A stretch of 64,000 bases of DNA from a bacterium (GTDB lineage Bacteria > Patescibacteriota > Minisyncoccia > Phycocordibacterales > Phycocordibacteraceae): assembly GCA_021849125.1 (NCBI GenBank), contig JAJZTG010000002.1, forward strand, positions 12,573 through 76,572, in the 5' to 3' direction. Made by a program: the position numbers and the translations under genes. Under the pieces are notes generated by a model. That model did not search any database. It was not told the DNA's origin and saw only the letters and a program-made list of their open reading frames with translations. Each line of letters starts with the position of its first letter. Position 1 is the stretch's first letter. Below, piece after piece: positions 16,955 through 62,218 of this stretch.

Positions 16955-16993
16955 AAAAGCAAATCGGCCGCATTAGCGGCCGATTTGCTTTTT
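16955..16993. terminator. bidirectional terminator aaaaagcaaatcggccgc atta gcggccgatttgcttttt (after rplK)
   Basis: ~15-bp stem with A and T flanks. Confidence 0.65.
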
Positions 16994-44995: not shown

Positions 44996-45001
44996 ACCCA
45001 T

Positions 45002-45107: not shown

Positions 45108-46457
45108 TCATACAAGCAGTGAGCGGATATCTTGGATCTCTTTTGATAACTCACTATCCACAACAACTTCACGCTTTATCTTCTCGCATGAGTGGATAAC
45201 CGTCGTATGATCACGACCGCCAAGCTTCGTACCGATAGTCGGATAAGAGATATTGAAATCCTCACGAAGGAGATACATGATGATCTGCCTCGGTCGCACG
45301 ACTTCCCTACGGCGCGTCTTCTCATAAATGCTTTCCTCATCGATCCCATAGAATTCAGCGACTTTCCCGACCACATTCTTAACGGAAATGGTCTTTTGCG
45401 GACGGGTGAATGAACGGAGTGATTGGCGTACTTCAGCGATATCCGGCGCCATACCGCGTACCTGTGCATGACAGACGAGGCTATTCACCATACCTTCAAG
45501 TTCCCGGATCGATCCAGGGAGGGTTGTCGCCACATATTCGATAACTTCATCAGAAAGGATGACGCCATGAAGCGCTGCTTTTCTTCGTACGATAGCCATA
45601 CGGGATTCAGGGTCAGGTTCGCCGATGTCGATCGCCATACCGCTTGCAAGCCTGCTCTTTAAACGATCGGCGATATCCGGAATGGATGAAGGCGGGCGGT
45701 CAGAAGAGAACAATATCTGCTTGTTCGTATCATGCAGGGCATTAAAGAGATGGAAAAGCTCCTCTTGCGTCTTTTCTTTCTTGGAGAGGAACTGGATGTC
45801 ATCCATGATAAGGAGATCATACTGCCGGTATTTATCCTTGAAGCGATTCGCGGTGCCAGCTTGAACGGAATCAGTGTAGTCGATAACGAATTTCTCAGAA
45901 GTGAGATAAAACGCCTTACGCCCAGGGAACTGTTTCTTGAACTGGTTACCGATCGCTTGGATGAGGTGGGTCTTCCCTCTCCCGGTATCTCCGTAGATAA
46001 AAAGCGGATTATAGGTGATGCCTGGTCTGGAAAGGACCGCTTGAGCAGCGCTGTAAGCGAGCGTATTGAAAGATCCGATCACGAACGTGTCGAACGTATA
46101 GCGCGGATTCAAATTATCGCTCTTATTTATATAGAATTCTTCGATCGGAAGCTCGATAGCGCCTCGCGTATTCTTTATCTCTTTTGGCGGCTTACGATGC
46201 TCGTCCTTCGCGATAGTGTATTCGATATTCCTGAATTCGTAGGAAACTTCACGGACGATCTTGAGGAGGAGCGTGTGAAATTTCTTTACGTACCAATCCT
46301 TGAAGAATTGGCTTGGTACGCCGATATACACGATGCCATCCTCTATCTTGACGATGAAGCTGTTCTTGAACCACGTATTGAAATTTGCGGGGGATATCGA
46401 CAGTTCGACCTGAGTCAATACATGTTCCCAGAGTTCCTTAGGATTCTGTGCATCCAT
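45108..46457 (-). CDS. dnaA: chromosomal replication initiator DnaA
   Basis: P-loop GDTGRGKTHL, an AAA+ domain and a C-terminal DNA-binding domain (HTTV). The start is the internal Met MDAQNPKELWE. Confidence 0.9.
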   Translation of the reverse strand: MDAQNPKELWEHVLTQVELSISPANFNTWFKNSFIVKIEDGIVYIGVPSQFFKDWYVKKFHTLLLKIVREVSYEFRNIEYTIAKDEHRKPPKEIKNTRGAIELPIEEFYINKSDNLNPRYTFDTFVIGSFNTLAYSAAQAVLSRPGITYNPLFIYGDTGRGKTHLIQAIGNQFKKQFPGRKAFYLTSEKFVIDYTDSVQAGTANRFKDKYRQYDLLIMDDIQFLSKKEKTQEELFHLFNALHDTNKQILFSSDRPPSSIPDIADRLKSRLASGMAIDIGEPDPESRMAIVRRKAALHGVILSDEVIEYVATTLPGSIRELEGMVNSLVCHAQVRGMAPDIAEVRQSLRSFTRPQKTISVKNVVGKVAEFYGIDEESIYEKTRRREVVRPRQIIMYLLREDFNISYPTIGTKLGGRDHTTVIHSCEKIKREVVVDSELSKEIQDIRSLLV

Positions 46458-46556
46458 ACGTACAGAGGAGTATACGATTATTCCAACATATGCGCACCAC
46501 TGGCGTTTCGGGGGGAACCTGTTAATATCATGTGTACAAGGTAATCCCACCCGATT

Positions 46557-46697
46557 ATGTCTACGAAACGAACGTACCAGCCGAAGAAGCGCAAGCGCGC
46601 AACGACCCATGGTTTCCTCGCTCGGACCAGCACGACCTCAGGTCGTAAGATCGTCCAGAAGCGCCGCCGTGTCGGTCGGGCAAAGCTCGCCGCCTAA
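46557..46697 (+). CDS. rpmH: 50S ribosomal protein L34 (not in ORF track)
   Basis: Translation: [46 protein letters not shown]. Confidence 0.85.
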
Positions 46698-47026: not shown

Positions 47027-47764
47027 GTGATAACAGCCTTTTTTCATACGTTTTTCTATAATCCGATCTATAACGCGCTGGTCACGTTTGTCGCCGTCGT
47101 GCCCGGTTCCGATGTCGGTATCGCGATCATTCTTCTCACGATAGGGATTCGTATCATCCTCCTCCCTTTCTCCTTATCAGCAGCCAGGACACAACGTGCT
47201 ATGAAAGATCTCCAGCCGAAGCTTAAGGAACTAAAGGAGAAGCATAAAGGCAACAGAGAGCAAGAAGCGATTGAGACACTCGCTCTCTACAAAGAGGCGA
47301 ACGTAAGGCCATTTGCGAGCATTTTGATAACCTTCATCCAGATACCTATCCTGCTCGCGCTGTACTGGGTTTTCATACAAGAATCGTTTCCAGCGATCGA
47401 TATGGCGAAGCTCTATGCGCTTACGCCAATACCCGACACGTTCTCGCTCGCATTTCTCGGTCTTATCCCCGTGGCTGAGAAGAGCTTGCTTCTGGCGCTA
47501 CTGGCTGGGGCCACGCAATTTATCTTGGCGGACATGATGATAAAGGGCACGATGAAGCCCACAGAAGATGCTAAAGCACACGATTTTCAGAAGATTATGG
47601 GTCTTCAGCTCAAATACGTATTCCCGTTCCTGATAGGCGCTATTTCATATAGCACCTCAGCGGCGATCGCGCTCTACTTCATCGCGACAAACCTTGCCGG
47701 CTCAGCGCAAGAATGGCACATGCGCCGCATACTCGAGAAAGAAGCGCTTCCTCAGAGCGCGTAG
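47027..47764 (+). CDS. yidC: membrane protein insertase YidC (short Oxa1-like form)
   Basis: Five TM helices and a conserved LLPFS...PILLALYW segment. It sits downstream of rnpA. Confidence 0.8.
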   Translation: MITAFFHTFFYNPIYNALVTFVAVVPGSDVGIAIILLTIGIRIILLPFSLSAARTQRAMKDLQPKLKELKEKHKGNREQEAIETLALYKEANVRPFASILITFIQIPILLALYWVFIQESFPAIDMAKLYALTPIPDTFSLAFLGLIPVAEKSLLLALLAGATQFILADMMIKGTMKPTEDAKAHDFQKIMGLQLKYVFPFLIGAISYSTSAAIALYFIATNLAGSAQEWHMRRILEKEALPQSA

Positions 47765-48951
47765 CTCCAAAGAGAGCCATCATTTTTGTTCGTGAAGACG
47801 AATACGGTGCGAGAAGGGTTGATTGCCGGGGATTCGATATCGAAACTATCTGCAGTTTCTGTCGAAGGATCAAGGACGAGTTGGGCATAGCGGCCCGCGG
47901 TTTCGATGCGCCAGATGCGGTCAGAAAAATGCGCAGCGCCTTGATACCAGTCATCCGGATATTGGAACGCCGCGCTCGGATTTACCGGTACGCCGCAGTA
48001 TACGGATGAGTCATCTGCAGTCCAGACGCACTTATCTGCGATGGTCGCAATCGGGAGCTGCAGAGCAATGTTTGTAGACGTGTCGACGAGCTCCATCTGG
48101 AGTGCGTTGTTCTGGGTGTAACTCACGAGTACGTATTTCCCTGAATGACTTGCAAGCGCCACAAGGCCGAAATGCGGTCCGGCAACCCGAGAGAAAACAC
48201 CCTGACCGTCAACGATAAAAGCGCTCCCGAGTATAGATCCTGAAGGACGGGAAAAGGCTAGGTACTTCCCCCTCCCCGCGTACGAGACGCGAACGGAACT
48301 GAGAGGTGTTGAAAATAGCGACGTCGAATGAGAGCCGTCTATGCGCACACGGGAGACGGTAGACCCGTTTACGCCAGATGAAAGCTCCAAGACCTCGTTC
48401 GTAGAGACGGCGATATCGGTGAGGTTCTGCGGAAGGAAGAAACCCGTGGAGCTCGTCGCAGAAAGAGCATAAGTGTTTACGGTAGAGAGGTCGTCTCCCG
48501 ATAGATACCGCACGAAAGCGACGGAACCATCCGGGAGCCAAGTGGCATTTTGGATGCTCGGGATGGTTTTGCTACTCACGCGCGTAAGCGTCTTACCCCT
48601 GAAGAGGTATGAAAAGACATTACCGCTCGCACGTTCGATGAACTCGATAGAAGTTTCAGGAGACGATGTCGCCCCTCCGGATGTCGTGTCGACCGCAATC
48701 ACCCCAGGCACCACCGGCCCGGCACTGATTTTCGTGAGACGCGTCCCTACTGCAACAGGAGCTTCAAGAGACCCTTGGTCTGGCGTGGTGGCAAAACCCC
48801 CAGTCCCGCCTTGTCCGGCGACAGGAAGGTTCACGCTTCCTGAGGGTGCAACCGACACCGCAGGACCTGACTTCGTGAGGAAGAAATAGATGATACCGCC
48901 GAGTATGAGAGCGGCGATCGCGATTCCAGAGATGATGAGAGAGCGTCGCAT
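47752..48951 (-). CDS. membrane-anchored hypothetical protein with predicted beta-propeller-like ectodomain; last gene of T4SS-like operon
   Basis: N-terminal TM helix. Repetitive beta-strand-rich sequence. Confidence 0.4.
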   Translation of the reverse strand: MRRSLIISGIAIAALILGGIIYFFLTKSGPAVSVAPSGSVNLPVAGQGGTGGFATTPDQGSLEAPVAVGTRLTKISAGPVVPGVIAVDTTSGGATSSPETSIEFIERASGNVFSYLFRGKTLTRVSSKTIPSIQNATWLPDGSVAFVRYLSGDDLSTVNTYALSATSSTGFFLPQNLTDIAVSTNEVLELSSGVNGSTVSRVRIDGSHSTSLFSTPLSSVRVSYAGRGKYLAFSRPSGSILGSAFIVDGQGVFSRVAGPHFGLVALASHSGKYVLVSYTQNNALQMELVDTSTNIALQLPIATIADKCVWTADDSSVYCGVPVNPSAAFQYPDDWYQGAAHFSDRIWRIETAGRYAQLVLDPSTETADSFDIESPAINPSRTVFVFTNKNDGSLWSYAL

Positions 48952-48954
48952 AGG

Positions 48955-49926
48955 CTATTGGACAACTTTGAATCCAGGATTACTGCTACAACCACCCGCC
49001 CCAGTGTTACTGGTGGTACAAGAAAGCGAGATGTTCCAGCAAGATGCGGAGGCTCCTGTCGTCAGTATTTGCAATACTTTCGAGCCGCATGGGGTCTTTA
49101 CGCTACTCATGCACGTAACTCCCTTATCAGACGTGCAGGCAGAGGCAAAATTGACCGTGTCACGTCCGTTATTTGGGTTAGTTTCAGTCGATGCGATGGG
49201 TTGGTAGTAAGAGTAACCAACAATGGCGTTAACCCATCCAGAAACGCCAGATGAAGAGCTTATATCGGCAAAAGCATACGGTCCGGTAGCAGGACCACGT
49301 TCTGTGCTGCATGTCGCTTTGTGCTCGGTCGTAAAGAAAGGCACGTTACCGGAGCCGGTCGTACATTTTGCCGCGAAGTCCTCAGCAGCTTTTTGAGTCG
49401 GGCAAACCGCCGTTTTAAGCAAGGTGCCAGTAACCGTGCAACCCGCAGCTTTGGCAGCGGTGGTTGCAGGATCAGTATTGGACCCGGAACCTGAAGGAGA
49501 TGTCCCAGAAGAAGGAGGCGGAGGGGCATTCAGATCGATAGGCGGAAGATCGAGGGAGAGGTTCAGGATGCTCGGATTGATGAGCGAGAAGACCAAGACC
49601 GGGGAAAGGACAAGGATAAGTCCGAATATCGCCTGCGTGATGCGCTCGCGCCCCTCGGATACTTTCGAGGCACTGCCTTGTGACGAGGAGATCTGGAGAC
49701 CTCCCCAGATGATCTCGATGATGGCAAGCATAGCGGCAAGCCCGATGAGGTACTTATACAGATTGTTAAAGAAGGAAGTCAGTGTCGCTGAGTTTACGAC
49801 GCTTGTCGCATCTCCGCTGGTTAATCCTGGGATCGGAGCAAGCGCTGTGAATCCGTTTGCGAAAGCAGTCGGAGCAAAAGCGACGAAGGAGAGCAAGGCG
49901 ATAAAGAAGATCTTTTTCATGTTCAT
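48955..49926 (-). CDS. VirB2/TrbC pilin-like protein fused to Cys-rich C-terminal domain
   Basis: A signal peptide and two hydrophobic helices (YLIGLAAMLAIIEIIWG and AIFGLILVLSPVLVFSLI), a Pro-rich linker and a C-terminal region with about 14 Cys. Confidence 0.45.
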   Translation of the reverse strand: MNMKKIFFIALLSFVAFAPTAFANGFTALAPIPGLTSGDATSVVNSATLTSFFNNLYKYLIGLAAMLAIIEIIWGGLQISSSQGSASKVSEGRERITQAIFGLILVLSPVLVFSLINPSILNLSLDLPPIDLNAPPPPSSGTSPSGSGSNTDPATTAAKAAGCTVTGTLLKTAVCPTQKAAEDFAAKCTTGSGNVPFFTTEHKATCSTERGPATGPYAFADISSSSGVSGWVNAIVGYSYYQPIASTETNPNNGRDTVNFASACTSDKGVTCMSSVKTPCGSKVLQILTTGASASCWNISLSCTTSNTGAGGCSSNPGFKVVQ

Positions 49927-50927
49927 AAGCCGAAGAAGTTAGTGCTCGGCTTGCTGCCGAAGGACAAAGAGAGCACAGATGTAGCCCCCTCAGAACCGCT
50001 CGCTGAAGCAGTGAGGGATAAAGAAGCAGTCCCTTCCCCGTCCCCTGAAGGCCGCAGGGTGATGAGACTTCCTGTCTGTGCCGGTGATCCGTTCAAGAAC
50101 CAGCGAAGAATAGGGGCCGAGGTTCCTTTAGGAAAAGAGAAAGGTGCTGCATAGAGCGTTGATTCTGAACCGCGTATCGCGTATGACCCTGAGAGAGCGC
50201 GATCGAAACGTACGCCAAGCAGAGGGTCGCTTTCATAGATACGCACCTTCGGAGATGCGGCGTATAGAGACATCGACGCGCCGCCGACCAAGGTCCCGTC
50301 GGCGGTTTTTACCGAAACAGAAACGGTGCGCTCGCGGTATTGCAGCGGCGTGGCAACGACGATGGTCGTTTTCCCGAGTCCAGACGCGCTTGCCAATCGG
50401 GCTCCATCCACGCTCCACGCATACGAGAGGCCAGAGGGATCGATCGCGCGACCGCGCGAGTCTTTGAAAGCAGCGATGGCGACGACACGGATGCTGCCTC
50501 CCATGGGAGGCAGTGCCTTGCCAGCATACAAGGGCGGAGTGGTGGCGATGGGCTCCGCGATGAGAGAGACATCCTCAGGTTGAAGAGTTAGGGATTTCGA
50601 ATACACGGATCCGTTATTCAAAACGATCACGGTTACTTCGACAGGAACACCCGGACCCTTGAGGGTGATGGGTACGGGCCGCACATTTCCTTCGTATACC
50701 TGGGTTCCGTTTACACGAACCCGCAAGGTTGCGCTTGAGAGGTTCGAGGCAGTGGGAAGCGCAGAAATGACCGCCTGACCGTAAGGAAGCGGGTAATCCG
50801 GGGAGACCGTGACAGAGAACAGGTCTCCTCCCGTCGAACCGATTGATGATAGGTCGAACGATTGAGCAAAGGAGTGCGCAGGAAGTGCTAGTACGAGGAA
50901 AGCAGCGATTAAGAGAGATGCACGCAT
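49923..50927 (-). CDS. secreted hypothetical protein (T4SS-like operon)
   Basis: Signal peptide MRASLLIAAFLVLALPAHSFA. Beta-rich. Confidence 0.4.
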   Translation of the reverse strand: MRASLLIAAFLVLALPAHSFAQSFDLSSIGSTGGDLFSVTVSPDYPLPYGQAVISALPTASNLSSATLRVRVNGTQVYEGNVRPVPITLKGPGVPVEVTVIVLNNGSVYSKSLTLQPEDVSLIAEPIATTPPLYAGKALPPMGGSIRVVAIAAFKDSRGRAIDPSGLSYAWSVDGARLASASGLGKTTIVVATPLQYRERTVSVSVKTADGTLVGGASMSLYAASPKVRIYESDPLLGVRFDRALSGSYAIRGSESTLYAAPFSFPKGTSAPILRWFLNGSPAQTGSLITLRPSGDGEGTASLSLTASASGSEGATSVLSLSFGSKPSTNFFGL

Positions 50928-51006
50928 ACGTACAGTATATAGTGTGCCCAAAGGATTTATGTCTCCTTGTGGGCAGCTCTGGGGAATGTCCACAAGGAGG
51001 CGTAAA

Positions 51007-51609
51007 TCACGCTGCTTCTCTCAGAGCCTCGTATTCTTCAGCATTTGCTGCTTGTTGGGCCTGAAAAGCGCGCAATTGCGCGTTTTGTGACTCGCGTAGC
51101 GTTCGTTGTTTCGAGGATACACGTTTTTCATAGGCGCGTTTCGTCGCCTTGTCCTTCTTTATCTGCGCGCTATAGAGTTTTGCCATGGTTCCCGTTAACG
51201 CAGGAAGCGTGCCAACGAGCGGCACTTCGCTCACAAAGAGGCCCCCCATGAGCCAGAGCACATTCGTGGAATTTTCTTTGATAAGGCGTCGGTTCGTAAA
51301 GATGATCAAAAGACAGATGGTCATCCAGCCGATAAGACCTGCCGCCATCGCTAGCACCACTCCGAAGAGCTCGAACGCGCCTGAACCATAAAAACCAGCG
51401 AGCCCGCCGACCACGACGGCACCCACTTTGCCGACGATGCCGCCTCCCAAGGCAGCCTCGGTTGCCAAACCGAGCAGCACGGGCCCGAAAAACCAGAATT
51501 GTTCGAACATGAAACGAATCGCATCGAACACGAGAGCGAGCGCAAGCATCGGGAGCGCCTTCCCCCAGGTCATCGTCTTGGGAGGAGAATCATGCAGGGT
51601 TCGCAGCAT
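51007..51609 (-). CDS. Gly-rich polytopic membrane protein with C-terminal coiled coil (T4SS-like operon; possible VirB6-like)
   Basis: About four TM helices and a KKDKATKRAYEKRV...coiled-coil tail. Confidence 0.4.
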   Translation of the reverse strand: MLRTLHDSPPKTMTWGKALPMLALALVFDAIRFMFEQFWFFGPVLLGLATEAALGGGIVGKVGAVVVGGLAGFYGSGAFELFGVVLAMAAGLIGWMTICLLIIFTNRRLIKENSTNVLWLMGGLFVSEVPLVGTLPALTGTMAKLYSAQIKKDKATKRAYEKRVSSKQRTLRESQNAQLRAFQAQQAANAEEYEALREAA

Positions 51610-53410
51610 GGCGTATCTTCTCCTGCTTTATGGCGAGGAGCTGCGAAGGGTCTGAGGTGATGATCTGATCCTCGGTGTAAGAAGCGACGACTTTGATCGC
51701 GACATGTTTAAGACCTGCGAAGAAGAGTCCCTCCCCTACTCCGGCCTCAAGCAGAAGGTACTTCTCCTCGTCGGTGAGATTGAAGGTCTCTTGGAGGACG
51801 TCGATCGTCGTCGGGGACTGCTTAAGGAGAAGCTGGAGGGATGAGTTGGTGAGGATCGGGCGGCCATACGGGCTCTTCAAGAAGTCCTCGACGTCCTGAG
51901 TGATGGTGCAGACGCCCAGGTAGTACTTACGGCCACGCTTGGCGAGGCTGTAGAGGAATGAGGCAGTGTCGTCGCTCTTCATCATCCACCATGCCTCATC
52001 GATGATAAGGAGGCGTTTCTTGAGATCATGACGCACTGCATTCCAGATGTAGTGCGTGATGATGTACATCGCGACCGGCTTCAGCTCGTCTTCCATGTCG
52101 CGTACGGAGAAGACGGCGAACTGCTGCTTGAGGTCGATGTTGGTCGGCTGGTTCATGAAGCCTGCCCAGGTGCCGCGCGTATATTTGGAAAGCCGTTCGA
52201 TGAGCGATTCGCTTCCCTCCATGCCCGAGAGCACTTGCTCGAAGTCGGAAAGCAGAGGCGGTTCGGCACCGGTGAAATCAGCCTCGCCAGTAATGTCTTT
52301 CAAGGCATAGGTCTCACTGATGGCACGGTCGATGATCGCGTCCTCTTCCGGAGACAGGCCGCCGAGCATGATACGGAAAAGGCCGACAAGCGAGATGATG
52401 TTCGACCGCAGGATGTCTTTCGGATCCTCGTCTTCCTTCACGGGCGGCAGGTCGAAGGGATTGATATGGTCCTGCGACGAAAGCGAAATGCTGAATGAGC
52501 GTCCGCCGGTTGCGGCAGCGAGCTTCTCGTACTCGCGTTCCGGGTCGATCACGATGACGTCCGTGCCGAACATCAAGGAGCGCAGGATCTCGAGCTTCGT
52601 CGCGTAGCTCTTGCCAGAACCGGATTTCGCGAAGACGACCGAGTTGTAGTTCTCGAGCGAGAAGCGATCGAAGAGGATGAGCGAGGAATTGTGGCGGTTG
52701 ATGCCGTAGAGGATGCCGCGATCAGAGGTAAGGTCGAAGGAGACAAACGGGAAGATCGAAGAAAGAGGAGAGGAATTAAGCTTGGAGTTCACCAAGAGCT
52801 CGTCCGTGCCGAGCGGCAGGCACGAACGGAACCCTTGTTCCTGCTGGAAGAGCGCCGGCTTCGTGTAGACGAGCTTCGCGTCGAGAATGCCGCGGATCTC
52901 CCCTTCCGTCTTGTCGATCTCCTCGCGCGTATCGCCGTACAGGGCGAGATAGAGACCTACGTCGAAAAGCTTCTCTTGGGCTTGCTGCAGGTTGTCACGC
53001 AGGCTTTCAAGATCTTGATAGGCGGTATCAAGCATCGGATCACGCACCAGGCCGCGCGATTCACGTTCAGAAATCTGACTTTGCACCTCGGCGACTTTCT
53101 TCTGGAAGCTCCGGAGCGCGGTTTCCGTCTCGATCGGGTGGATGAAGATGGAAACGTCGAGAACCTTATCGAGATCGATGATCGGCGAGAACCAGCTGTC
53201 CGATAGGAAACGCGGATACGAGATGGTATAGAACGTGCGTACGAACTTCTCGCCGAGTTCAAGCTCGCGCGAGCCGATCTTAAGCGCTGTCGGCGCGATC
53301 GTATCGACGAGATCGAGCGTACTCTGCTTGTAGATATCGCGCGGCAAGACCGGCACGATCTCCGGCGCCTCTTCTTTCTGTTTACGATTGAGAAAATCAA
53401 GTAGTGCCAT
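51590..53410 (-). CDS. virB4: VirB4/TrbE/CagE-family T4SS ATPase, C-terminal part (central + ATPase domains)
   Basis: Walker A VFAKSGSGKSYATK and Walker B LLIIDEAWW. Typical VirB4 segments RGLVRDPMLDTAYQDLE and YLGVCTITQD. Confidence 0.8.
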   Translation of the reverse strand: MALLDFLNRKQKEEAPEIVPVLPRDIYKQSTLDLVDTIAPTALKIGSRELELGEKFVRTFYTISYPRFLSDSWFSPIIDLDKVLDVSIFIHPIETETALRSFQKKVAEVQSQISERESRGLVRDPMLDTAYQDLESLRDNLQQAQEKLFDVGLYLALYGDTREEIDKTEGEIRGILDAKLVYTKPALFQQEQGFRSCLPLGTDELLVNSKLNSSPLSSIFPFVSFDLTSDRGILYGINRHNSSLILFDRFSLENYNSVVFAKSGSGKSYATKLEILRSLMFGTDVIVIDPEREYEKLAAATGGRSFSISLSSQDHINPFDLPPVKEDEDPKDILRSNIISLVGLFRIMLGGLSPEEDAIIDRAISETYALKDITGEADFTGAEPPLLSDFEQVLSGMEGSESLIERLSKYTRGTWAGFMNQPTNIDLKQQFAVFSVRDMEDELKPVAMYIITHYIWNAVRHDLKKRLLIIDEAWWMMKSDDTASFLYSLAKRGRKYYLGVCTITQDVEDFLKSPYGRPILTNSSLQLLLKQSPTTIDVLQETFNLTDEEKYLLLEAGVGEGLFFAGLKHVAIKVVASYTEDQIITSDPSQLLAIKQEKIRHAANPA

Positions 53411-53413
53411 AGG

Positions 53414-54043
53414 TTAGGTATCGAGACGGATCGGATTTTCAAGCTCGCCCGGATTGAAGGAACGATACAGAAGCTCGATAACCTCTTCGGTGCCGAGCGG
53501 TACCGCGCGCACGCCGGTTCCCGAGAGCGCCGCGCTTACGAGCGACATGCGTTGTTCGAGCTGCGCGCGGTCCTCTTCGAAGCTGGTCGCGCTTGTCGCT
53601 GCGCTCGCCTCTTTTTTCTGCAAGAAGCCGACCGCGCTCGCCGCCGTGAGTTTCGGCGCATACGGCACGACGATATAGAACGACTTGGTCATGATGTTGG
53701 TCTGATCGGCGAATGAGCGGACGAACTCGATATACTCGCGGAGCTGGATGCGCATGAGCTCGGTCTTCTGTTCAGCCATGCGTTCTCCCATATACGAAAG
53801 ATAGGGACGCAGGTCCATCCGGCGCGAATTGACGATGATCTGGATCGAGAAGTCGAGCGTATTGAGGAAATTCTGAAAACCGAGGATGATCGCGTTCTGT
53901 TCGTCCGCTGACTTCAGGCCGAAGTTGACGGCAGAACAGATAAGGACGCCGCGGTATCCGCCGTCTTTGAGGATGACGATACCGTTCCGGATCTCTTTGA
54001 CCGGGACGAATTGCTGCGTTTTCCCTGCTTGTGCGGTATCCAT
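53414..54043 (-). CDS. VirB4 N-terminal domain encoded as a separate ORF (same frame, separated from the ATPase part by one TAA)
   Basis: NGIVILKDGGYRGVLICSAVNFGLKSADEQNAIILGFQNFLNTLDFSIQIIV resembles the VirB4 N-terminal region. The stop at 53414-53416 is followed by one codon and then the ATG at 53408-53410. Confidence 0.5.
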   Translation of the reverse strand: MDTAQAGKTQQFVPVKEIRNGIVILKDGGYRGVLICSAVNFGLKSADEQNAIILGFQNFLNTLDFSIQIIVNSRRMDLRPYLSYMGERMAEQKTELMRIQLREYIEFVRSFADQTNIMTKSFYIVVPYAPKLTAASAVGFLQKKEASAATSATSFEEDRAQLEQRMSLVSAALSGTGVRAVPLGTEEVIELLYRSFNPGELENPIRLDT

Positions 54044-54048
54044 AGGTG

Positions 54049-54474
54049 TTAGGTCGATCGCGAAACGGGCTCCGAAGGCTTCACGTCAAGCGACCAGGCG
54101 AGCTCGGAAAGTTTTCCGCGCGTGAGCCGTGGCGTGCCGCGTGAGACAGGGGCTACGGGCGCTTCAGCCTTAGCGACAGTCCCCTCCGTAGGCTGTTCCC
54201 CATATTTCCAAAGCAGAAGCTTACGTTTCGTATAGTAATTGAACCCTGCTTCGAGGATCTCGATGAACGGCTTGCCGTTTACTTTATAGAACGCGAGCGC
54301 TGCGCCGAACGCCGCTATCGGTGCAGAAAACAGGAGCGCGAAGAAAAACGGCAGATACGAGAAGAAGATGACACAGAGGCCAGCGGTCCCTGCTATATAG
54401 ATGAACTGCCTTAAGGTAAATGGCCCGATGATCTTATCTTCGACCTCGATGAATTGGGGTACCTGATATTCCAT
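54049..54474 (-). CDS. VirB3/PrgI-like small 2-TM protein
   Basis: 141 aa with two adjacent TM helices, immediately upstream of virB4. Confidence 0.45.
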   Translation of the reverse strand: MEYQVPQFIEVEDKIIGPFTLRQFIYIAGTAGLCVIFFSYLPFFFALLFSAPIAAFGAALAFYKVNGKPFIEILEAGFNYYTKRKLLLWKYGEQPTEGTVAKAEAPVAPVSRGTPRLTRGKLSELAWSLDVKPSEPVSRST

Positions 54475-55845: not shown

Positions 55846-56478
55846 TCAGGCGGGAGTGCCGGTCAAAAGACTAAAGAGCCAAACGACCAGCTTGAAGAAA
55901 GGTCCCGCAAGAAGAAGCGAAAAGAAGAACAGGAAGAAGATAAGGGCTAGCAGCCCGGTGCTACGGATGCGCTGTTCGAATGCACCCAACCGCGCAGCGA
56001 AAGACCAAGGGAGTGCTGCCCGAAGCGCCGTGTAGCCATCAAGAGGCGGGAACGGTATCAGGTTGAAGAGCCCAAGGAAGAGGTTTACGAACGTGATGGT
56101 CGCGGCGACCGAGAGCGCTTGGGGCGAGAAAAAAGCAGCACCGAAGTGCACGATGAGACCGAATACGACCGCAAGGAAGAGATTGCTGGCTGATCCGGCA
56201 AGCGCGACGAAGGCTTCGCCCCAACGGCGGTTCTTAAGATTGTAGGGGTTATACGGAACCGGCTTTGCCCAGCCGAAGAGGACCGATGAGCCGGAAAAGA
56301 TGAGAAGCGCCGGTATGAGGATAGAACCCATGAGGTCGATATGCGGGAGCGGGTTCAAGGTGAGGCGTCCTGAGAGCCGTGCGGTCGGATCGCCAAGGGC
56401 GTCAGCGGCATAGCCGTGGGACACCTCGTGCACTACGACGGAGAGGATGAGGACAATAAGGGATAGGGTTATGGCCAT
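55846..56478 (-). CDS. site-2 protease (peptidase M50) family membrane metalloprotease
   Basis: HEVSHG (HExxH) and the NLIPFPPLDG motif. Confidence 0.7.
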   Translation of the reverse strand: MAITLSLIVLILSVVVHEVSHGYAADALGDPTARLSGRLTLNPLPHIDLMGSILIPALLIFSGSSVLFGWAKPVPYNPYNLKNRRWGEAFVALAGSASNLFLAVVFGLIVHFGAAFFSPQALSVAATITFVNLFLGLFNLIPFPPLDGYTALRAALPWSFAARLGAFEQRIRSTGLLALIFFLFFFSLLLAGPFFKLVVWLFSLLTGTPA

Positions 56479-56517: not shown

Positions 56518-56760
56518 ATGGCACGAACGTGTGAAATCACTGGCAAGAGCACGCAGGTAGGCGGTCGCTACAGCAACCGCGTCCGCGCGACTCAGTTCAA
56601 CCCGACGGGCAAGGTGCGCCGCAAGGCGAACCTGCAGAAGCGCCGTATCTTCGTACCGGAGCTCGGCAAGACCATCATCGCGCTCGTCTCGATGAAGGGC
56701 CTGAAGACGATCAAGAAGCACGGCGCGTTCGCCGCGCTCAAGAAAGCGGGCTCTATTTAA
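56518..56760 (+). CDS. rpmB: 50S ribosomal protein L28
   Basis: MARTCEITGKSTQVGGRYSNRVRATQFNPTGKVRRKANLQKRRIFVPELGK. Confidence 0.85.
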   Translation: MARTCEITGKSTQVGGRYSNRVRATQFNPTGKVRRKANLQKRRIFVPELGKTIIALVSMKGLKTIKKHGAFAALKKAGSI

Positions 56761-56765
56761 TCCAG

Positions 56766-56810
56766 AAAAAGACAAGGGCCGGCATCTTTAGTGCCGGCCC
56801 TTGTCTTTTT
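56766..56810. terminator. bidirectional terminator with 14-bp stem (gacaagggccggca / tgccggcccttgtc)
   Basis: Perfect hairpin flanked by A5 and T5, directly after rpmB. Confidence 0.65.
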
Positions 56811-56854
56811 CTATCGCTATGGTAATACTGCGTACTAGTCTATAGATAGTTCCA

Positions 56855-57343
56855 TTGTCCGCAAAGGAGGCGGAGGGTATGGAAGAGAAAAGTAAGAAAA
56901 AAGGATGTAACGCTGCGGCTATCGTTCTAGCTTTCTGTCCAGATGGATCATTGATTTTAGTGCTTGATCCGACAAAACAGGATCTGCATGAAGGGCGGCA
57001 ACTGCGTTGGAAGTTTTCAGGAGGGCATGTCGAAGAGTGGGATTATCCTCCTGGCAATCGTACTGATCATGCGCGGGCAGCATATAGCGCTGGTGTCCGC
57101 GAGCTCTTGGAGGAAACGGGAGCCAAGGTGGTGCTTATGAAAGCATTCAGGCGTTTCGTTTCGCAGGATGGCCACGTAAAGACGTTTTTTGTCGCATGTG
57201 TAGACGACTCAAACCTCAAAGCACGTGGTAATGACGGCGAATACGTAAAGAAATTCGATCCATCCCGCGCTTTACGGACGCGTCGTTTCCTCAAGGAACA
57301 TAAAAATATTCTCAGAGAAGCTATCGAGTACATTCGTTCGTAG
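56855..57343 (+). CDS. NUDIX hydrolase
   Basis: NUDIX box GGHVEEWDYPPGNRTDHARAAYSAGVRELLEETG. Its GC content is lower than its neighbours. Confidence 0.7.
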   Translation: MSAKEAEGMEEKSKKKGCNAAAIVLAFCPDGSLILVLDPTKQDLHEGRQLRWKFSGGHVEEWDYPPGNRTDHARAAYSAGVRELLEETGAKVVLMKAFRRFVSQDGHVKTFFVACVDDSNLKARGNDGEYVKKFDPSRALRTRRFLKEHKNILREAIEYIRS

Positions 57344-57378
57344 GCCTGACCAACGTGTCAGGCCTACTCTGTTTTATC
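57341..57378. terminator. bidirectional terminator (taggcctgac...gtcaggccta + T-tract)
   Basis: 10-bp stem. Downstream of the NUDIX gene and the ComEC MBL fragment. Confidence 0.55.
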
Positions 57379-57852
57379 AGGAAGAGTAAAGTGTCCTGGA
57401 TTCGTCGACGATGAAATAGCGAAGGTGCTGATGGTAAGGCGATCCGGACCGGACACTATCATGCTTGCTCCCTTGAGCGTGATCCGTGTGCCATATGGGA
57501 ATGCATCGGTACCAGCGTGGAGCGTCTCTCCTATCTTGTAACGATCATGAACATTCGGCGCGCCCCCCGCCTGTGCCGGCGCATCGCTCGTAAGTATGAG
57601 CGTGTCGATGTGATGTTGCCAAGGCGGAAGCGTCCGACCAAGGCTCCGCAGGATGCTCGCATCAGGGCCGGTGTCGATGAGGATGGTCTTGCCTTCAGAA
57701 GTACGGATTAGGGCCGCAGTCCCCTTCCCTGCCGCAAAGACATCGATACGCAGTCGCGTTGAAGTCATGATCGAACCGTAGAGAACGACATTTGCCGCAA
57801 TCAGAACGACCATCGCAAGCAGATACACGTACGTCGGCAGAGTCCGGAGCAT
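57364..57852 (-). CDS. ComEC C-terminal metallo-beta-lactamase-like domain fragment with degenerate metal-binding motif
   Basis: A TM helix followed by TILIDTGPD...HHIDTLILTSDAPAQAGG. This aligns to the ComEC MBL region ILIDGG...DYLIITHPDSDHIGG, but with HxHxDH replaced by SDAPAQ. It is truncated at ~160 aa. Confidence 0.5.
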   Translation of the reverse strand: MLRTLPTYVYLLAMVVLIAANVVLYGSIMTSTRLRIDVFAAGKGTAALIRTSEGKTILIDTGPDASILRSLGRTLPPWQHHIDTLILTSDAPAQAGGAPNVHDRYKIGETLHAGTDAFPYGTRITLKGASMIVSGPDRLTISTFAISSSTNPGHFTLPDKTE

Positions 57853-57870
57853 ATGCTACATTTTATATCT

Positions 57871-58476
57871 ATGACGTACTCACCAAAGACATTTAATCTC
57901 CCTACCCTTTCGGGTATCTCGGAGAAACAGGTCAGCGTGCATCTCGGCCTCTATGAAGGCTATGTGAAGCACACGAACCTCATCATGGAGAAGATCAAAG
58001 CGCTCAAGGATGCAGACGCCGAAGGGAATGCCTATCTTATCGCCGAGTTGCGCCGCCGTTTCGGTTTCGAGTTCGATGGCATGCGCATGCACGAGCACTA
58101 CTTCGAACAGCTTGAACACGGCGCGAAGGAATTGAACACAGAAAGCAAGCTAGCCATGGCCGCGGCCGAAAAATACGGTGAACAAGGTCTCGTGGCGCAT
58201 GTAAAAGAAGTGGCTAGTAGTCGCGGCATCGGTTGGGGCGTGGTATACGTTGACCCGATGATCGGGTCGCTCCACACCGTGTTCGTAAACGATCACGAGC
58301 TCGGTCAGCTTGCGGGTCTTCCGATCATCCTCGCGCTCGATCTCTGGGAGCATGCATTCATGGTCGACTATGTGCCGGCCACCAAGAAGGATTATGTCGA
58401 TGCGTTCTTTGCCAACCTCAACTGGGAGGTCGTCGAGAAGCGTTTCGAAGACGCGATGAAGATGAGCGCGACATAA
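57871..58476 (+). CDS. sodA: Fe/Mn superoxide dismutase
   Basis: HLGLYEGYVKHTN, DLWEHAF and YVDAFF motifs. Confidence 0.85.
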   Translation: MTYSPKTFNLPTLSGISEKQVSVHLGLYEGYVKHTNLIMEKIKALKDADAEGNAYLIAELRRRFGFEFDGMRMHEHYFEQLEHGAKELNTESKLAMAAAEKYGEQGLVAHVKEVASSRGIGWGVVYVDPMIGSLHTVFVNDHELGQLAGLPIILALDLWEHAFMVDYVPATKKDYVDAFFANLNWEVVEKRFEDAMKMSAT

Positions 58477-59927
58477 AGCAGCACGACGAGCCATATCGGG
58501 AATAGAGGTATGAGGAAAGCCGCGGCCGGAAGCGCCGCGGCTTTTTCTGCCACCTCTATGATGAATGTGTTTAAGAGATACGCTGGGAACGCGAGTATCG
58601 TGACGAAAAGAGGAGCGATAGACGAGAGAATCAGGCCAGCGAATCCCGCGATAGCGGAGAAGGCCATCGTGAGCGGCACGATCGGCGTGACGATAAGGTT
58701 CGCTGGTACCGCGACGAGCGAAAGGTTGCCGGTCTCGTAAAGAAGAAGCGGCAATACGCTTACCTGCGCAGCGAGCGTAGTCGCAAGCACGCCCCTCAGG
58801 AAGATGCTTTTGATGCGTATAAGCCTCGTTTCGATGAGCGGTGCGAGCCATATGAGACCGGCGGTCGCGGCGACCGAAAGGTCGAAACCAGGATCGAATG
58901 CGAGATAGAGCGGATTGAAAAGAAGCATCAGGAAGACGACGATGAGGAGTGCACGCGAGGCAGCATAGGTACGCCCGGTCGCTCGCGCATAGAGCGCGAT
59001 GAAAGCCATGAGCATTGCGCGGATGGCGGTCGCAGAAGCGCCTGCGATCCCGACAAAGATAAGTACCGCAAGCGCTCCCGCAGCCGTGCTCCATCTGCGA
59101 GAAAGCTTCGTCCGCGAGAACATGAGCAGGACCCACTCCGCGATGACCATGACGTTGTAACCGGAGAGGACGATGATCTGGATGAGACCGCTTCGTGCAA
59201 ATGCGTCCTGGAGCTCGTTACCGAGCCCGGCCTTCCCGCCGATCAGGATACCGCCCGCAAGCGAGCTGTATGGTTCGGGGAGAGCCGATTCGAGTCCGCC
59301 GAGAAACGCATGCTTCGCGCGCGCGAGCATCGCGGGAACCGAATACCAGGGTGCTGGTGCGACCGTATGGATGGAGCCAAAGCTCAAGGTGAAACGCACG
59401 CCGACGCGTTCGAGGTAGCGGTCATAGCGGAAGGGTCGACCGTTGTCCCCCATGAAAGGTTTTGGCACTTCGAGCGTGCCGGTCACATGCACGCGGTCGC
59501 CGACAGAAACGCGCGACGAGCGCGGAGCGACGACCAGCAAGATGGTCGATGTCTTTCCTTCCGAGACGCGCACTTCGACGCGCTGCTTAGCATCGCGCAG
59601 GTCTGGGTCAGCGACCACGATCCCGTCATACGCGACACGTTCCGAGAGGTGTGCCGCAAATGACGTAGGAAGCGGCGTGTCAGCAAGCGACATGCGCAGC
59701 ATGCCGAGTGCTGCGAAAAGGAAGAACACTGCGCCAAGCCCCGTTAGAAAGTTCGAAGACGTACGTTCTAACGGGGTGGGCGAATACGCAGACAAGATCC
59801 TCGGGACAAAAAATAGAAGCGCAGCGAGGAGAAGCGCAAAACAGATCGGTGCCCATCCGAAAGAAAAGATTGAACGCAGGAGGACGCCACCCGCAAACCC
59901 GCTAGTTATCGCGAGCAGGATACCCAT
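58392..59927 (-). CDS. comEC: DNA internalization competence protein ComEC/Rec2 (DUF4131 + competence domains)
   Basis: Polytopic membrane protein. OB-like DUF4131 segment RVEVRVSEGKTSTILLV. Competence-domain helices. Its C-terminus overlaps sodA convergently by 85 nt. Confidence 0.7.
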   Translation of the reverse strand: MGILLAITSGFAGGVLLRSIFSFGWAPICFALLLAALLFFVPRILSAYSPTPLERTSSNFLTGLGAVFFLFAALGMLRMSLADTPLPTSFAAHLSERVAYDGIVVADPDLRDAKQRVEVRVSEGKTSTILLVVAPRSSRVSVGDRVHVTGTLEVPKPFMGDNGRPFRYDRYLERVGVRFTLSFGSIHTVAPAPWYSVPAMLARAKHAFLGGLESALPEPYSSLAGGILIGGKAGLGNELQDAFARSGLIQIIVLSGYNVMVIAEWVLLMFSRTKLSRRWSTAAGALAVLIFVGIAGASATAIRAMLMAFIALYARATGRTYAASRALLIVVFLMLLFNPLYLAFDPGFDLSVAATAGLIWLAPLIETRLIRIKSIFLRGVLATTLAAQVSVLPLLLYETGNLSLVAVPANLIVTPIVPLTMAFSAIAGFAGLILSSIAPLFVTILAFPAYLLNTFIIEVAEKAAALPAAAFLIPLFPIWLVVLLYVALIFIASSKRFSTTSQLRLAKNAST

Positions 59928-59954
59928 GCTCGTATCGTAACAAGGCGAAAGCGG

Positions 59955-60374
59955 TTATTCGCCGCGGTCCATCGCTTGGTTTGCGAGGGCGTCAGCATCG
60001 GAGTTTTGCGCGCGCGGTACATGTGCGAAGGAGATAAGACCGAACGGTGCCGCGAGTTCTTTTACTCGCGCAGCTTGTGTCTGCATGTCCGGGTGCTTGA
60101 TCTTGTAGATACCGTTCATCTGCTTCACCACAAGCTCGCTGTCCATCTTTACCATGACGGCCGTATCGGCAAGCTTGCCTTGAGCTAGCTCGTGCACTTT
60201 CTGAAGCCCGAGAATGACCGCTTCGTATTCAGCATAATTGTTCGTACGAACTCCAAGATACTCGGATACTGCAGCGACGATATTGCCGAGTTCATCACGG
60301 ACGACTGCACCGGAACCTGCGGGGCCAGGATTACCGCGCGCGCCGCCGTCGGCATGGATGGTGTACGTAGTCAT
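59955..60374 (-). CDS. rnhA: ribonuclease HI
   Basis: MTTYTIHADGGARGNPGPAGSGAVV...NNYAEYEA...QNSDADALAN (DEDD catalytic residues). Confidence 0.85.
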   Translation of the reverse strand: MTTYTIHADGGARGNPGPAGSGAVVRDELGNIVAAVSEYLGVRTNNYAEYEAVILGLQKVHELAQGKLADTAVMVKMDSELVVKQMNGIYKIKHPDMQTQAARVKELAAPFGLISFAHVPRAQNSDADALANQAMDRGE

Positions 60375-60394
60375 AGGGGCAGTATACCGTGCAC

Positions 60395-60498
60395 AGCAGT
60401 AAAAGCATTTTTGGGAGCGCTTTGCTCAAACCCTTCGCGCCTTACGGCACTCAAGGATGTCGCGGTGCTAACCTACTCCCAAAAATGCTTTTGCTGCT
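60395..60498. repeat. 23-bp near-perfect inverted repeat (22/23) separated by 58 nt, between recJ and rnhA
   Basis: agcagtaaaagcatttttgggag (60395-60417) pairs with ctcccaaaaatgcttttgctgct (60476-60498). Confidence 0.55.
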
Positions 60499-60505
60499 TC
60501 ACTTG

Positions 60506-62218
60506 TTACGCCATGCGGATGTCGAGCAAGCGGAAACGGATCGGGTTCCCGCGTGAAAAGGTGTCACGCTCGAGATGCACGAGCGCGTGCACGAGCGCAC
60601 CGGCGGCAAGAGCGTCAGCTGTCCGCGCGAGGGCGCCTTTCGCGAAGAAGGTGACCGCCTCGATCGCGCGCGCGTCCCCTAAGGAAAGTTTCAAGTGCTC
60701 CTCCCCTTTTCCGAAACGTGAAATAGCGCGCACGGGAACTTCACGGAGCAGAAACACGGGCTTCGGATTCTCGATACCGAACGGAGCGAGGTGTTGCACC
60801 TTCGCGTAGAACGCATCCGTCACATCGGTCATCGCGATATCCGCGTCAGCATGAGCACTCAAGTCTTCGTCGAGCGTTTGATCGAGCTTAGCGAGCGCCT
60901 CGACGAGGCGTTCTTCAAGGAAGAAGACAGCGTCGTTCTTCACGGTGAAACCGCCTGCAGCAGCGTGTCCGCCAAAATCCTCGAAAGTGTCTTCAGTCGC
61001 GCGCATGAGTTCGAGCGCGTGCGTCTTGCCGCCGCTTCGCATCGAACCCTTGAGACGCATGTTTCCCTCTCTCCCCCACAAGAAGACAGGACGTTCGAAT
61101 TCGTCGGCGATGTTTCCCGCAACGAGACCGAGCAGTGCCGGACGCCACTCGGGGTCGCCGAGCGCGATGACGCTCGGCATGCTTTCACGTTCTTTGAGAC
61201 GTGCATGCACTGCACGAGTGATCGCACCGGCTTCCGCTTTTCGTTTCCGGTTAGCGCTCTCGAGCTTCTTCGCGAGAGTGTCGGCGAGACTCTCGTCATC
61301 GGTTGCAAGGAGGTCGAACGCATCGCGCGCATCACCCATACGGCTCGCCGCATTTATGCGCGGTGCGATCATGAAACCGATGTCGTCCTCGGTAAGTGAG
61401 CGCTGATCGGTGCGCATAATCCGCAATAGTTTTTGAAGGCCGATGCGCGGCGATTTCCGCAAGACGAGGAGTCCGTAGGTAGCAAGCACGCGGTTCTCGC
61501 CGATAAGCGGTACCATATCCGCGACGGTCGCGGTCGCGACCATATCGAGGAGCCACTTCTCCCATCCGAGCGGGATACGTTCTCGAAGTGAAGGTTCGGT
61601 GGCAAGAGTAGCGACAACAAGTTTCCATGCGACGCCTGCGCCACAGAGCTCATGAAACGGATACGGTTCATCGGCGCGTGCGTGCGGGTTCACCACGGCG
61701 AACGCATCCGGCAGTGAAGCGCCTGGCAGGTGATGGTCGGTGACGATGACATCGATACCGAGCTCTTTCGCGTGAGCTACCGGTTCAAGATCGGTAATGC
61801 CTGAGTCAACCGTAACGATGAGCGTGACGCCACGTTTCGCGAGAGCCCCGATACCATCCTTGTTCATGCCATACCCTTCAAGGTGTCGATGCGGGATGTA
61901 GTTCTCGAAATTCGCCTCTGCTTTTTTCAAGAAATCGTGAAGGAGCACGCCGCCGGGGATGCCATCAGAATCGTAGTCACTCCACACCGCGATCTTCTCT
62001 TTTGTGAGGATCGCGTCAGCGAGACGTCGTGCCGCCCTCGGCATATCGGTCATCAAAAGAGGATCGTGTACGTGTTCGTCATACGAAGGGCTCAAGAACG
62101 CTTTCGCCGAATCCTTCGAAGTGATGCCGCGCCGAGCGAGGAGTGCCGCCGTAAGGTCGTCGTACGCCGCGAGCTCTTCGCGAAGTTTCTCATCAAGCGG
62201 TTCATGGAGCGGGAACAT
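60506..62218 (-). CDS. recJ: single-stranded-DNA-specific exonuclease RecJ
   Basis: DHH motifs (DYDSDGI, VTVDSGI, VIVTDHH) and a DHHA1 domain. Confidence 0.85.
   Translation of the reverse strand: MFPLHEPLDEKLREELAAYDDLTAALLARRGITSKDSAKAFLSPSYDEHVHDPLLMTDMPRAARRLADAILTKEKIAVWSDYDSDGIPGGVLLHDFLKKAEANFENYIPHRHLEGYGMNKDGIGALAKRGVTLIVTVDSGITDLEPVAHAKELGIDVIVTDHHLPGASLPDAFAVVNPHARADEPYPFHELCGAGVAWKLVVATLATEPSLRERIPLGWEKWLLDMVATATVADMVPLIGENRVLATYGLLVLRKSPRIGLQKLLRIMRTDQRSLTEDDIGFMIAPRINAASRMGDARDAFDLLATDDESLADTLAKKLESANRKRKAEAGAITRAVHARLKERESMPSVIALGDPEWRPALLGLVAGNIADEFERPVFLWGREGNMRLKGSMRSGGKTHALELMRATEDTFEDFGGHAAAGGFTVKNDAVFFLEERLVEALAKLDQTLDEDLSAHADADIAMTDVTDAFYAKVQHLAPFGIENPKPVFLLREVPVRAISRFGKGEEHLKLSLGDARAIEAVTFFAKGALARTADALAAGALVHALVHLERDTFSRGNPIRFRLLDIRMA

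Follow-up and report, generated by a model that had tools for sequence, protein, structure and literature searches.

Genes at the comEC locus

DNA uptake universally passes through ComEC, whose metallo-beta-lactamase (MBL) domain is the nuclease that removes the strand that is not imported. We analysed the comEC locus in a stretch of 64,000 nucleotides (the window) from a bacterium of the Patescibacteriota (assembly GCA_021849125.1, contig JAJZTG010000002.1, positions 12,573 to 76,572). Three genes were found there: comEC (58392..59927, minus strand; 511 aa), a superoxide dismutase (SOD) gene, sod (57871..58476, plus strand; 201 aa), and a second minus-strand gene (57364..57852; 162 aa), whose product has an N-terminal transmembrane (TM) anchor and a truncated MBL-like domain and is called the remnant below. 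A sequence-only reading of the window had proposed that ComEC appears split at this locus, and that either the nuclease domain has been lost or inactivated and detached, or sod has inserted into an ancestral comEC. All three ORFs lie at the coordinates given there. Our results agree with the split, and they make the two alternatives parts of a single history: the remnant is free-standing, ComEC-like and without any HxHxDH ligand, and sod lies between two pieces that are one gene elsewhere. The gap of 540 nt which that reading had given between the two comEC pieces is also correct.

The open reading frame (ORF) of 511 aa is the channel-domain ComEC that had been described, as the Pfam scan showed. 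The protein matched DUF4131 (PF13567), the OB fold, at residues 23-186 (59370..59861; E 2.2e-16, bit score 60.5, cutoff 31.6) and the Competence channel domain (PF03772) at residues 228-493 (58449..59246; E 7.3e-44, bit score 150.6, cutoff 23), and no match to Lactamase_B was found. TIGR00360 (ComEC_N-term) scored 81.8 bits (cutoff 36.5). The three-domain ComEC equivalog TIGR00361 reached 69.2 bits, below its cutoff of 190, and spanned only model positions 82-377. The protein aligned with residues 145-486 of the solved full-length ComEC 30bt_A (E 1.5e-16), and at least 935 ComEC homologs, mostly of about 500 aa, have the same two domains. By these matches, the gene encodes an intact ComEC of the DC type (OB fold and DNA channel). 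For its predicted role in DNA import or natural transformation, the sole experimental support within the phylum comes from a cultured saccharibacterium (Southlakia), in which comEC is required for transformation (PMC10633639).

The MBL remnant

Pfam Lactamase_B (PF00753) matched the 162-aa ORF at residues 43-70 only, with E 0.015 and 15.7 bits against a gathering cutoff of 22.7. The ORF also matched positions 423-517 of TIGR00361 (ComEC_Rec2; E 3.6e-4), in an alignment that begins at residue 15. A profile of 41 remnant-family sequences matched residues 531-620 of 30bt_A (E 8.6e-4), as well as the isolated ComEC MBL domain 9ic4_A. As comEC and the remnant map to consecutive segments of 30bt_A (145-486 and 531-620), and in view of the domain calls, the two genes correspond to consecutive pieces of one ComEC.

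The AlphaFold model of the remnant (pLDDT 81.4, pTM 0.67) has a TM helix at residues 7-29 (57766..57834, minus strand; TYVYLLAMVVLIAANVVLYGSIM), followed by a beta-rich domain. Its top Foldseek match in the PDB was the ComEC MBL domain 9ic4 (E 9.2e-5, prob 1.00), with other MBL-fold proteins next. The TM-score against 9ic4 was 0.47 (query) and 0.30 (target) over 134 columns, indicating that about half of the MBL fold is present. About 130 aa follow the helix, compared with 266 aa for 9ic4, so that the domain is indeed truncated. The counterpart of the TM helix in full-length ComEC is the linking helix between the channel and the MBL domain. The earlier proposal that this ORF is a TM helix plus the start of the ComEC MBL domain is therefore backed by TIGR00361, the family profile and Foldseek together, and the possibility that it is unrelated to MBL proteins found no support: the relationship is specifically to ComEC. 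The remnant belongs to a family of free-standing proteins of 160-180 aa, whose members are labelled 'competence protein' or 'beta-lactamase superfamily II' by some annotation pipelines.

The metal-binding motif is lost, HPDSDH reading SDAPAQ (57571..57588, minus strand; residues 89-94) as previously noted. When 'ILTSDAPAQAGG' of the remnant was aligned to 'ISTHPDADHIGG' of ComEC, all four HxHxDH positions were replaced. The profile alignment placed ComEC 'STHPDADHIGG' over the family consensus 'LTsskassaGG' (LTSDAPAQAGG in the window), and the hmmalign columns set the same motif against those of intact relatives such as 'LTHPHADHMEG'. His occurs at the HxHxDH positions in 0/41 remnant-family sequences. 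Further downstream, the 162-aa form has a deletion that removes two more ligands, the bridging Asp ('TGD') and a His ('HHGS'); both motifs are kept in intact relatives such as P0281 and P0308. Because all tested metal ligands are gone, the remnant is predicted to have no metallo-nuclease activity.

The sod gene between the two pieces

The gene on the opposite strand between the two pieces had been called an Fe/Mn SOD, and its coordinates, Pfam match and solved homolog all agree with that. Its product matched Sod_Fe_C (PF02777) with E 4.9e-16 (59.1 bits against a cutoff of 20.9). The N-terminal domain PF00081 scored 14.8 bits (cutoff 27), and the phmmer alignment to the best solved match, 1coj_A (E 1.4e-24 over residues 17-204), includes this domain. 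At the ligand positions of that alignment 'vhl', 'mhehyf' and 'dlwehaf' stand against 'phf', 'lhelyf' and 'dtyehay', so that His, His, Asp and His are kept; we take these four to be the metal ligands from general knowledge of Fe/Mn SODs. An in-frame upstream ATG at 57853 is also open, and the start was placed at 57871 (MTYSPKTFNLP) because MTY(P/S)xKTFNLP is conserved in relatives. The gene thus appears to be a genuine, active-looking Fe/Mn SOD gene. Elsewhere in the window (20852..21562, plus strand), a 236-aa protein gave a weak match to alternative oxidase (E 2.4e-8), which is unexpected in Patescibacteria and may be relevant to oxygen handling alongside sod.

Distribution of the layout among relatives

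One genome per species was scanned, and 80 loci were obtained from genomes labelled Kaiserbacteria, Paceibacterota, Minisyncoccia, Parcubacteria and similar. Downstream of comEC, 41 loci carry an antisense sod and then the remnant, 30 an antisense sod only, and one a frameshifted sod and then the remnant. The remnant lies directly next to comEC, without sod, at four loci, and one locus has a fused ComEC-remnant with a sod fragment. The other three are uninformative or have neither gene (two are at a contig end). In total, sod is in place in 72 of the 78 informative species. The layout is therefore clade-wide: it is ancestral to a large Paceibacteria/Kaiserbacteria clade and is not specific to one genome.

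In species without the remnant, sod abuts rpmB directly, which indicates that the remnant was deleted from the locus. ORFs in two pieces were seen at two loci, the remnant in two overlapping ORFs in L013 (6629..7148) and sod in two ORFs in L031 (2270..2807); these are either frameshift pseudogenes or sequencing errors.

Overlap of comEC and sod

The 3′ ends of comEC and sod overlap convergently by 85 nt (58392..58476), as had been claimed, and both strands of this segment are coding. The last ~28 codons of sod are shared with comEC on the other strand. The ComEC C-terminal tail SSKRFSTTSQLRLAKNAST (58395..58451, minus strand) lies antisense to the SOD C-terminus, wobble base on wobble base. 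It makes up the last ~19 residues of ComEC and is conserved in about 110/120 best homologs. The antisense strand of the tail reads AFFANLNWEVVEKRFEDA; the two frames share their third codon positions, and the peptide encoded on that strand, YVDAFFANLNWEVVEKRFEDAMK, is the canonical SOD C-terminus, which matches 1coj_A almost residue for residue. Since this C-terminal sequence is ancient in SODs, the ComEC tail is the derived reading.

Both reading frames of the overlap are conserved across 66 loci. In all of them the comEC stop sits on the codon of an invariant SOD Tyr (TAA/TAG 66/66, Tyr 66/66), and the overlap is 70 nt long in 36 loci, 85 nt in 17 and 79 nt in seven. Since the two peptides are tied to each other through codon positions one and two, the frame under selection can be told only from the third bases that they share. 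At third bases that decide the SOD residue but fall in a four-fold degenerate ComEC codon, SOD kept its residue in 368/380 cases (97%; 50% expected). At those of the opposite kind, ComEC kept its residue in 175/232 (75%; 50% expected), mostly at the membrane-proximal Lys. This difference in retention indicates that SOD is the selected frame and the ComEC tail mostly a passenger, in which only the membrane-proximal Lys/Arg look selected.

Fossils at three loci confirm the direction of overprinting. In L005, where comEC and the remnant are fused, the antisense strand of the linker still reads AFFANLNWDVAEKRFED, a ghost of sod, and L022 retains another such ghost, 'SSKRFSPC'. In L020, two unrelated inserted genes part comEC from sod; the SOD C-terminus is full and the KRFSTT tail of ComEC is kept as well, so the overlap segment of ~60 nt appears to have been duplicated. 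One of the inserts (L020 5626..7888; also in L021) codes for a secreted protein of 447 aa whose C-terminus is M23-peptidase-like, the other for a membrane protein of 252 aa.

Selection on the remnant and its ties to comEC

In the three closest species pairs, the ratio of nonsynonymous to synonymous substitution rates (dN/dS) of the remnant was 0.165, 0.169 and 0.150, at dS 0.69-1.37. In the same pairs it was 0.084-0.131 for comEC and 0.058-0.083 for sod. Purifying selection (dN/dS about 0.16) acts on the remnant, which evolves about 1.5-2 times faster than comEC. More than 40 species, at 40-50% identity, have its ORF in intact form, and the start and the upstream spacer are conserved. The 41 family sequences share 15 invariant columns, including DTGPDA..LR.LG...P.W and the ISSST motif (57403..57417, minus strand; residues 146-150), whose I146, S147, S148, S149 and T150 are all invariant.

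Several comEC/remnant pairs overlap by 4 nt in lineages without sod. In L004, for example, sod is absent and the ATG of the remnant overlaps the comEC stop (ATGA). The fused protein of L005, P0097 (660 aa), carries a C-terminal part that aligns to the remnant of the window (E 1e-30) and that directly follows a nearly identical ComEC tail. The dN/dS values, the invariant columns, the ATGA overlaps and this re-fusion argue for retention of the remnant as a non-catalytic partner alongside ComEC. The suggestion of the sequence-only reading that it may still be expressed as a non-catalytic subunit fits the purifying selection, short of proof.

Decay of the MBL domain and order of events

We then searched a profile of the remnant against 1.84 billion representative proteins, which gave 7,627 relatives at E <= 0.001, and classified the best 150. 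HxHxDH was degenerate in all 79 relatives shorter than 200 aa and in all 40 of 200-259 aa. Among the 30 free-standing relatives of 260-330 aa, 16 were intact, with TGD and HHGS as well, and 14 were degenerate; the one fused ComEC (P0308, 822 aa) was intact. As all 119 relatives below 260 aa are degenerate and the forms of 260-330 aa are mixed, inactivation precedes truncation. The series thus runs from a fused ComEC of active type to free intact forms of ~290 aa, free degenerate forms of ~280 aa, forms of 230 and then 165 aa, and finally loss from the locus (30 species).

In L087 and L089, the remnant is a degenerate form of 280-286 aa and the antisense sod already overlaps comEC, in L089 with full synteny; sod was therefore in place before the domain was shortened. 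Locus L088, from a different lineage of the Candidate Phyla Radiation (CPR; 1..4873), has a 501-aa comEC and a free 290-aa MBL gene with an intact HPHADH motif 2.7 kb downstream. Two antisense ORFs (269 and 463 aa) lie between them, without sod, which shows that the split exists independently of sod. It had been asked whether relatives have two genes with an intact motif. The close relatives are degenerate, which leaves the original claim standing for them, but distant CPR relatives do have the intact motif. These distant cases (L088 and the 16 free-standing forms) indicate that detachment is older than inactivation. Another intact free-standing MBL protein, P0271, is on a 1-kb contig and so gave no gene context.

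In the neighbour-joining (NJ) tree of ComEC, the sod-less adjacent forms and the fusion fall inside the sod-bearing group. The sod-less taxa were the earliest branch in 0/100 NJ bootstraps, so their lack of sod is a secondary loss. The species without a remnant form one clade in 70/100 bootstraps.

Expression signals

The starts of sod and the remnant diverge from a spacer of 18 nt (57853..57870); the distance is 17-30 nt in most relatives. A TAnnnT hexamer, -10-like, occurs on each strand, TAAAAT toward the remnant and TACATT toward sod, and each ends 7 nt before its ATG. In about 15 species with spacers of 17-19 nt, the sequence AG[AG]GATAAAAT[GC]TA[GC]CA[CT] is conserved. It is a candidate bidirectional promoter, which may give leaderless mRNAs. 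A consensus promoter scan of 56700..60500 gave one match, inside the remnant coding sequence, fewer than the shuffled expectation.

At the other end of the remnant, a hairpin (57340..57367) with a perfect 11-bp stem (GTAGGCCTGAC...GTCAGGCCTAC) covers the stop codons of both the remnant (minus strand) and a convergent NUDIX gene (plus strand), and is likely a shared terminator of the two. The good terminator earlier assigned to the remnant is thus present as a hairpin over its stop, but its T-tract lies on the plus-strand (NUDIX) side only and the element is shared with the convergent gene.

Neighbouring genes

The neighbours downstream of comEC are conserved: the NUDIX hydrolase gene (56855..57343, plus strand), rpmB (56518..56760, plus strand) and an M50 peptidase gene (55846..56478, minus strand). 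Upstream, rnhA (59955..60374) and recJ (60506..62218), both on the minus strand and supported by gene order and Pfam (RNase_H/RVT_3), are conserved too. The synteny shared with relatives comprises recJ and rnhA upstream, and rpmB, the M50 peptidase gene and a PrgI/TraC/VirB4-like cluster downstream. The order recJ, rnhA, comEC recurs in L002, L004, L005 and L089. The cluster resembles a type IV secretion system (T4SS), with T4SS pilin, VirB4/TraG-like P-loop ATPase, TraC-like and PrgI-like genes at 47752..54474 and 43895..46610. It lies between the dnaA/dnaN origin region and the comEC locus, and its position relative to comEC is kept in relatives.

Patescibacteria are thought to rely on DNA import for genetic exchange, and perhaps also as a source of nucleotides. 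In the window, comEC lies directly downstream of recJ and rnhA (59955..62218), a conserved synteny, and genes for dCTP deaminase, thymidylate kinase and thymidylate synthase are found at 13980..16973. The recJ/rnhA synteny and the nucleotide genes would be compatible with imported DNA feeding nucleotide salvage; Tn-seq data from Southlakia argue against this (PMC10633639).

Two further observations concern other parts of the window. A 1126-aa isoleucyl-tRNA-synthetase-like protein (8439..11819, minus strand) contains an inserted His_Phos_1 domain (E 2.4e-31, residues 499-664) between its catalytic and anticodon-binding parts. In the gene for the single-stranded DNA-binding protein (SSB; 116..901, minus strand), ~118 residues precede the SSB domain (residues 119-222 of 261 aa), either an N-terminal extension or a start called too early.

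Interpretation of the locus

Our analysis suggests that the locus is a conserved set of three genes that arose by stepwise reduction of ComEC, and that the dead remnant is kept as a non-catalytic accessory of ComEC. We regard this as probable. The process would have started from a ComEC present as a channel plus a free-standing MBL protein, a form which persists with an intact motif in other CPR lineages. sod would then have arrived between the two genes, the comEC frame running into sod antisense until the Tyr codon gave a stop, and the SSKRFSTT...AS tail of ComEC would thereby have been created. Loss of the MBL ligands would have followed, then shrinkage of the domain from about 280 to 230 to 165 aa, and in the sister clade the disappearance of the remnant from the locus. 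Later, a few lineages would have deleted sod, leaving the comEC/remnant pairs with a 4-nt overlap and one in-frame re-fusion with a sod ghost.

In the working model, ComEC would import single-stranded DNA without a nuclease of its own. The remnant, expressed from its own promoter in the 18-nt spacer shared with sod, would have its N-terminus in the cytoplasm and its domain outside, and would act as a non-catalytic accessory in the place that the MBL domain takes in full-length ComEC, at the channel mouth and next to the OB fold. A role at this place is suggested by the full-length protein, in which the MBL domain is an active nuclease working together with the OB fold (PMC12455585). The other strand would be degraded by a separate nuclease, or its degradation would not be needed.

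Several points weigh against this interpretation. The Pfam Lactamase_B score of the remnant lies under the gathering threshold (15.7 vs 22.7 bits). The natural fusion was modelled from alignment A4 (P0097, five ComECs and remnants), an earlier alignment, A3 (40 ComECs and 32 remnants), having smeared the remnants across the channel region. The resulting model was moderately confident (pLDDT 69.4, pTM 0.50); its Foldseek search of the PDB gave a local match to 9ic4 only, without a global match to full-length ComEC, so that it carries no information on the docking position. In the window the remnant shares its start region with sod and not with comEC, which could point to a role unrelated to ComEC. 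The remnant is missing from the locus in 30/80 species, so its role is dispensable in some backgrounds and ComEC can evidently work without it. The deep order of the tree is weak: the 'basal' full-length forms fell outside in 32/100 NJ bootstraps and the truncated clade was monophyletic in 26/100, and for this reason the order of events is argued from motif state against length, from the position of sod and from the sod ghosts. All functions, finally, are assigned by inference from sequence.

That the insertion of sod itself broke a fused comEC in the clade ancestor, the genes not having been separate before, seems doubtful to us. In its favour, sod lies exactly at the channel/MBL boundary in every sod-bearing relative, the present ComEC C-terminus is made from the antisense strand of sod, and in none of the relatives examined do adjacent, split genes combine an intact motif with this synteny. 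However, free TM plus MBL proteins with an intact motif are common (16 of the best 150 profile matches), L088 is split with unrelated genes and no sod between the pieces, and the fusion of ComEC and MBL is reported to be nearly absent from the CPR as a whole (PMC6744442). The earlier proposal that sod inserted into an ancestral comEC holds insofar as sod lies between two halves that are one gene elsewhere (P0308, P0097); sod as the cause of the split is the less parsimonious account. We also think it unlikely that the 162-aa ORF is a functionless relic heading for deletion, kept open by chance or weak constraint and without part in DNA uptake. Its progressive shrinkage, its full loss in 30 of the 80 species, its faster evolution than comEC and its breakage into two pieces in L013 are what such a relic would show, but its dN/dS of 0.15-0.17 at dS 0.7-1.4, its intact ORF with 15 invariant columns and conserved start and spacer in more than 40 species at 40-50% identity, and the maintenance of the in-frame re-fusion and the ATGA-coupled pairs are against it.

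The close pairing with sod raises the question of whether the remnant was co-opted for an SOD or oxidative-stress role and no longer works with ComEC. Divergence from sod at 17-30 nt in most relatives, with a conserved spacer and maybe a shared bidirectional promoter, would fit. Yet lineages without sod keep the remnant, either in a 4-nt overlap with the comEC stop or as part of a fusion with comEC, and 30 species keep sod without the remnant. Each gene persists where the other is gone, so the two are not dependent on each other, and we consider such a role very unlikely. Almost no weight can be given to an assembly or gene-calling artefact. The window comes from a metagenome-assembled genome, and a convergent overlap of 85 nt is unusual, but the same layout, with both frames conserved, occurs in 66 independently assembled overlapping loci from many studies, and this conservation across genomes led us to reject it. 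A stronger form of our interpretation would treat the locus as a regulatory unit. The complementary 3′ ends of comEC and sod, read-through from comEC antisense to all of sod, and the shared 18-nt leaderless promoter would then form an excludon-like coupling of DNA uptake and oxidative stress, with the dead remnant as an obligatory non-catalytic subunit of a two-piece ComEC. We hold this to be improbable; if it were true, DNA uptake and oxidative stress would be reciprocally coupled across a whole class of ultra-small bacteria.

Comparison with known ComEC systems

Full-length ComEC/Rec2 proteins (Bacillus subtilis; Moorella glycerini 9ic4, 30bt) have the same OB fold and Competence channel as the ComEC of the window, and the remnant is homologous to the start of their MBL domain, with the linking TM helix kept. 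Unlike in these proteins, the nuclease domain of the window is on a separate polypeptide, lacks HxHxDH and has about half the length. In Streptococcus pneumoniae ComEC, most metal-binding positions of the MBL domain carry non-conservative substitutions, and the domain has been retained although its predicted state is inactive (PMC5031224; PMC12455585); the strand is degraded by the EndA nuclease (PMC5031224). An MBL domain that is predicted to be inactive is retained in both organisms, but that of S. pneumoniae is full-length and fused, and its nuclease EndA is known, whereas the remnant in the window is detached and truncated. ComEC of Helicobacter pylori stops just short of the nuclease domain; this organism has no known EndA homolog, and no MBL-related remnant occurs in its genome (PMC5031224). 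It resembles the window in its MBL-less ComEC, and the T4SS-like cluster near comEC loosely parallels the ComB system, by gene proximity only. The difference is that a remnant gene is present here.

The ComEC-MBL fusion has been reported to be essentially absent in the CPR (Meheust et al. 2019, PMC6744442), the DC profile ranks second in frequency among known transformable strains (14/51; Pimentel & Zhang 2018, PMC6299819), and surveys have recorded ComEC variants in which the OB fold, the MBL domain or both are missing (PMC6299819; PMC12455585). The 511-aa protein of the window is exactly of this MBL-less, DC type. The surveys in PMC6744442 and PMC6299819 scored single proteins, and free-standing MBL partners, a decay series and the placement or overlap of sod are not reported there. 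The word 'split' is absent from PMC6299819, and our literature search for split ComEC gave nothing relevant. Free-standing MBL-derived partners, a clade-wide antisense sod between the halves and a dual-coded tail were likewise not found in the literature searched. The detached remnant, the sod placement and the dual coding therefore appear to be undescribed, while MBL-less ComEC in this phylum and an inactive ComEC MBL domain were already known.

A protein of the EndA/Endonuclease_NS type was not found in the 64-kb window, which is a small fraction of the genome, so that absence there proves little. TatD (1110..1916), RecJ, RuvC and the 5′-3′ exonuclease domain of Pol I were considered as replacement nucleases in the window and set aside, as these are cytoplasmic families.

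Significance

In at least one large clade of Patescibacteria, the MBL domain of ComEC is not simply absent: it has been detached, killed, shortened and, in a sister clade, lost. Because the MBL domain is on a separate gene, surveys that score single proteins miss part of the DNA-uptake machinery. In the comEC/sod overlap, 66 genomes have kept a clear example of long-lasting dual coding on opposite strands, in which both the direction of overprinting and the selected partner can be read. The interest of the locus would grow if the remnant were a working subunit or the antisense layout regulatory. The decay series provides natural 'deletion mutants' for the non-catalytic roles of the MBL domain, and the identity of the enzyme that breaks down the second strand becomes a question for the whole phylum.

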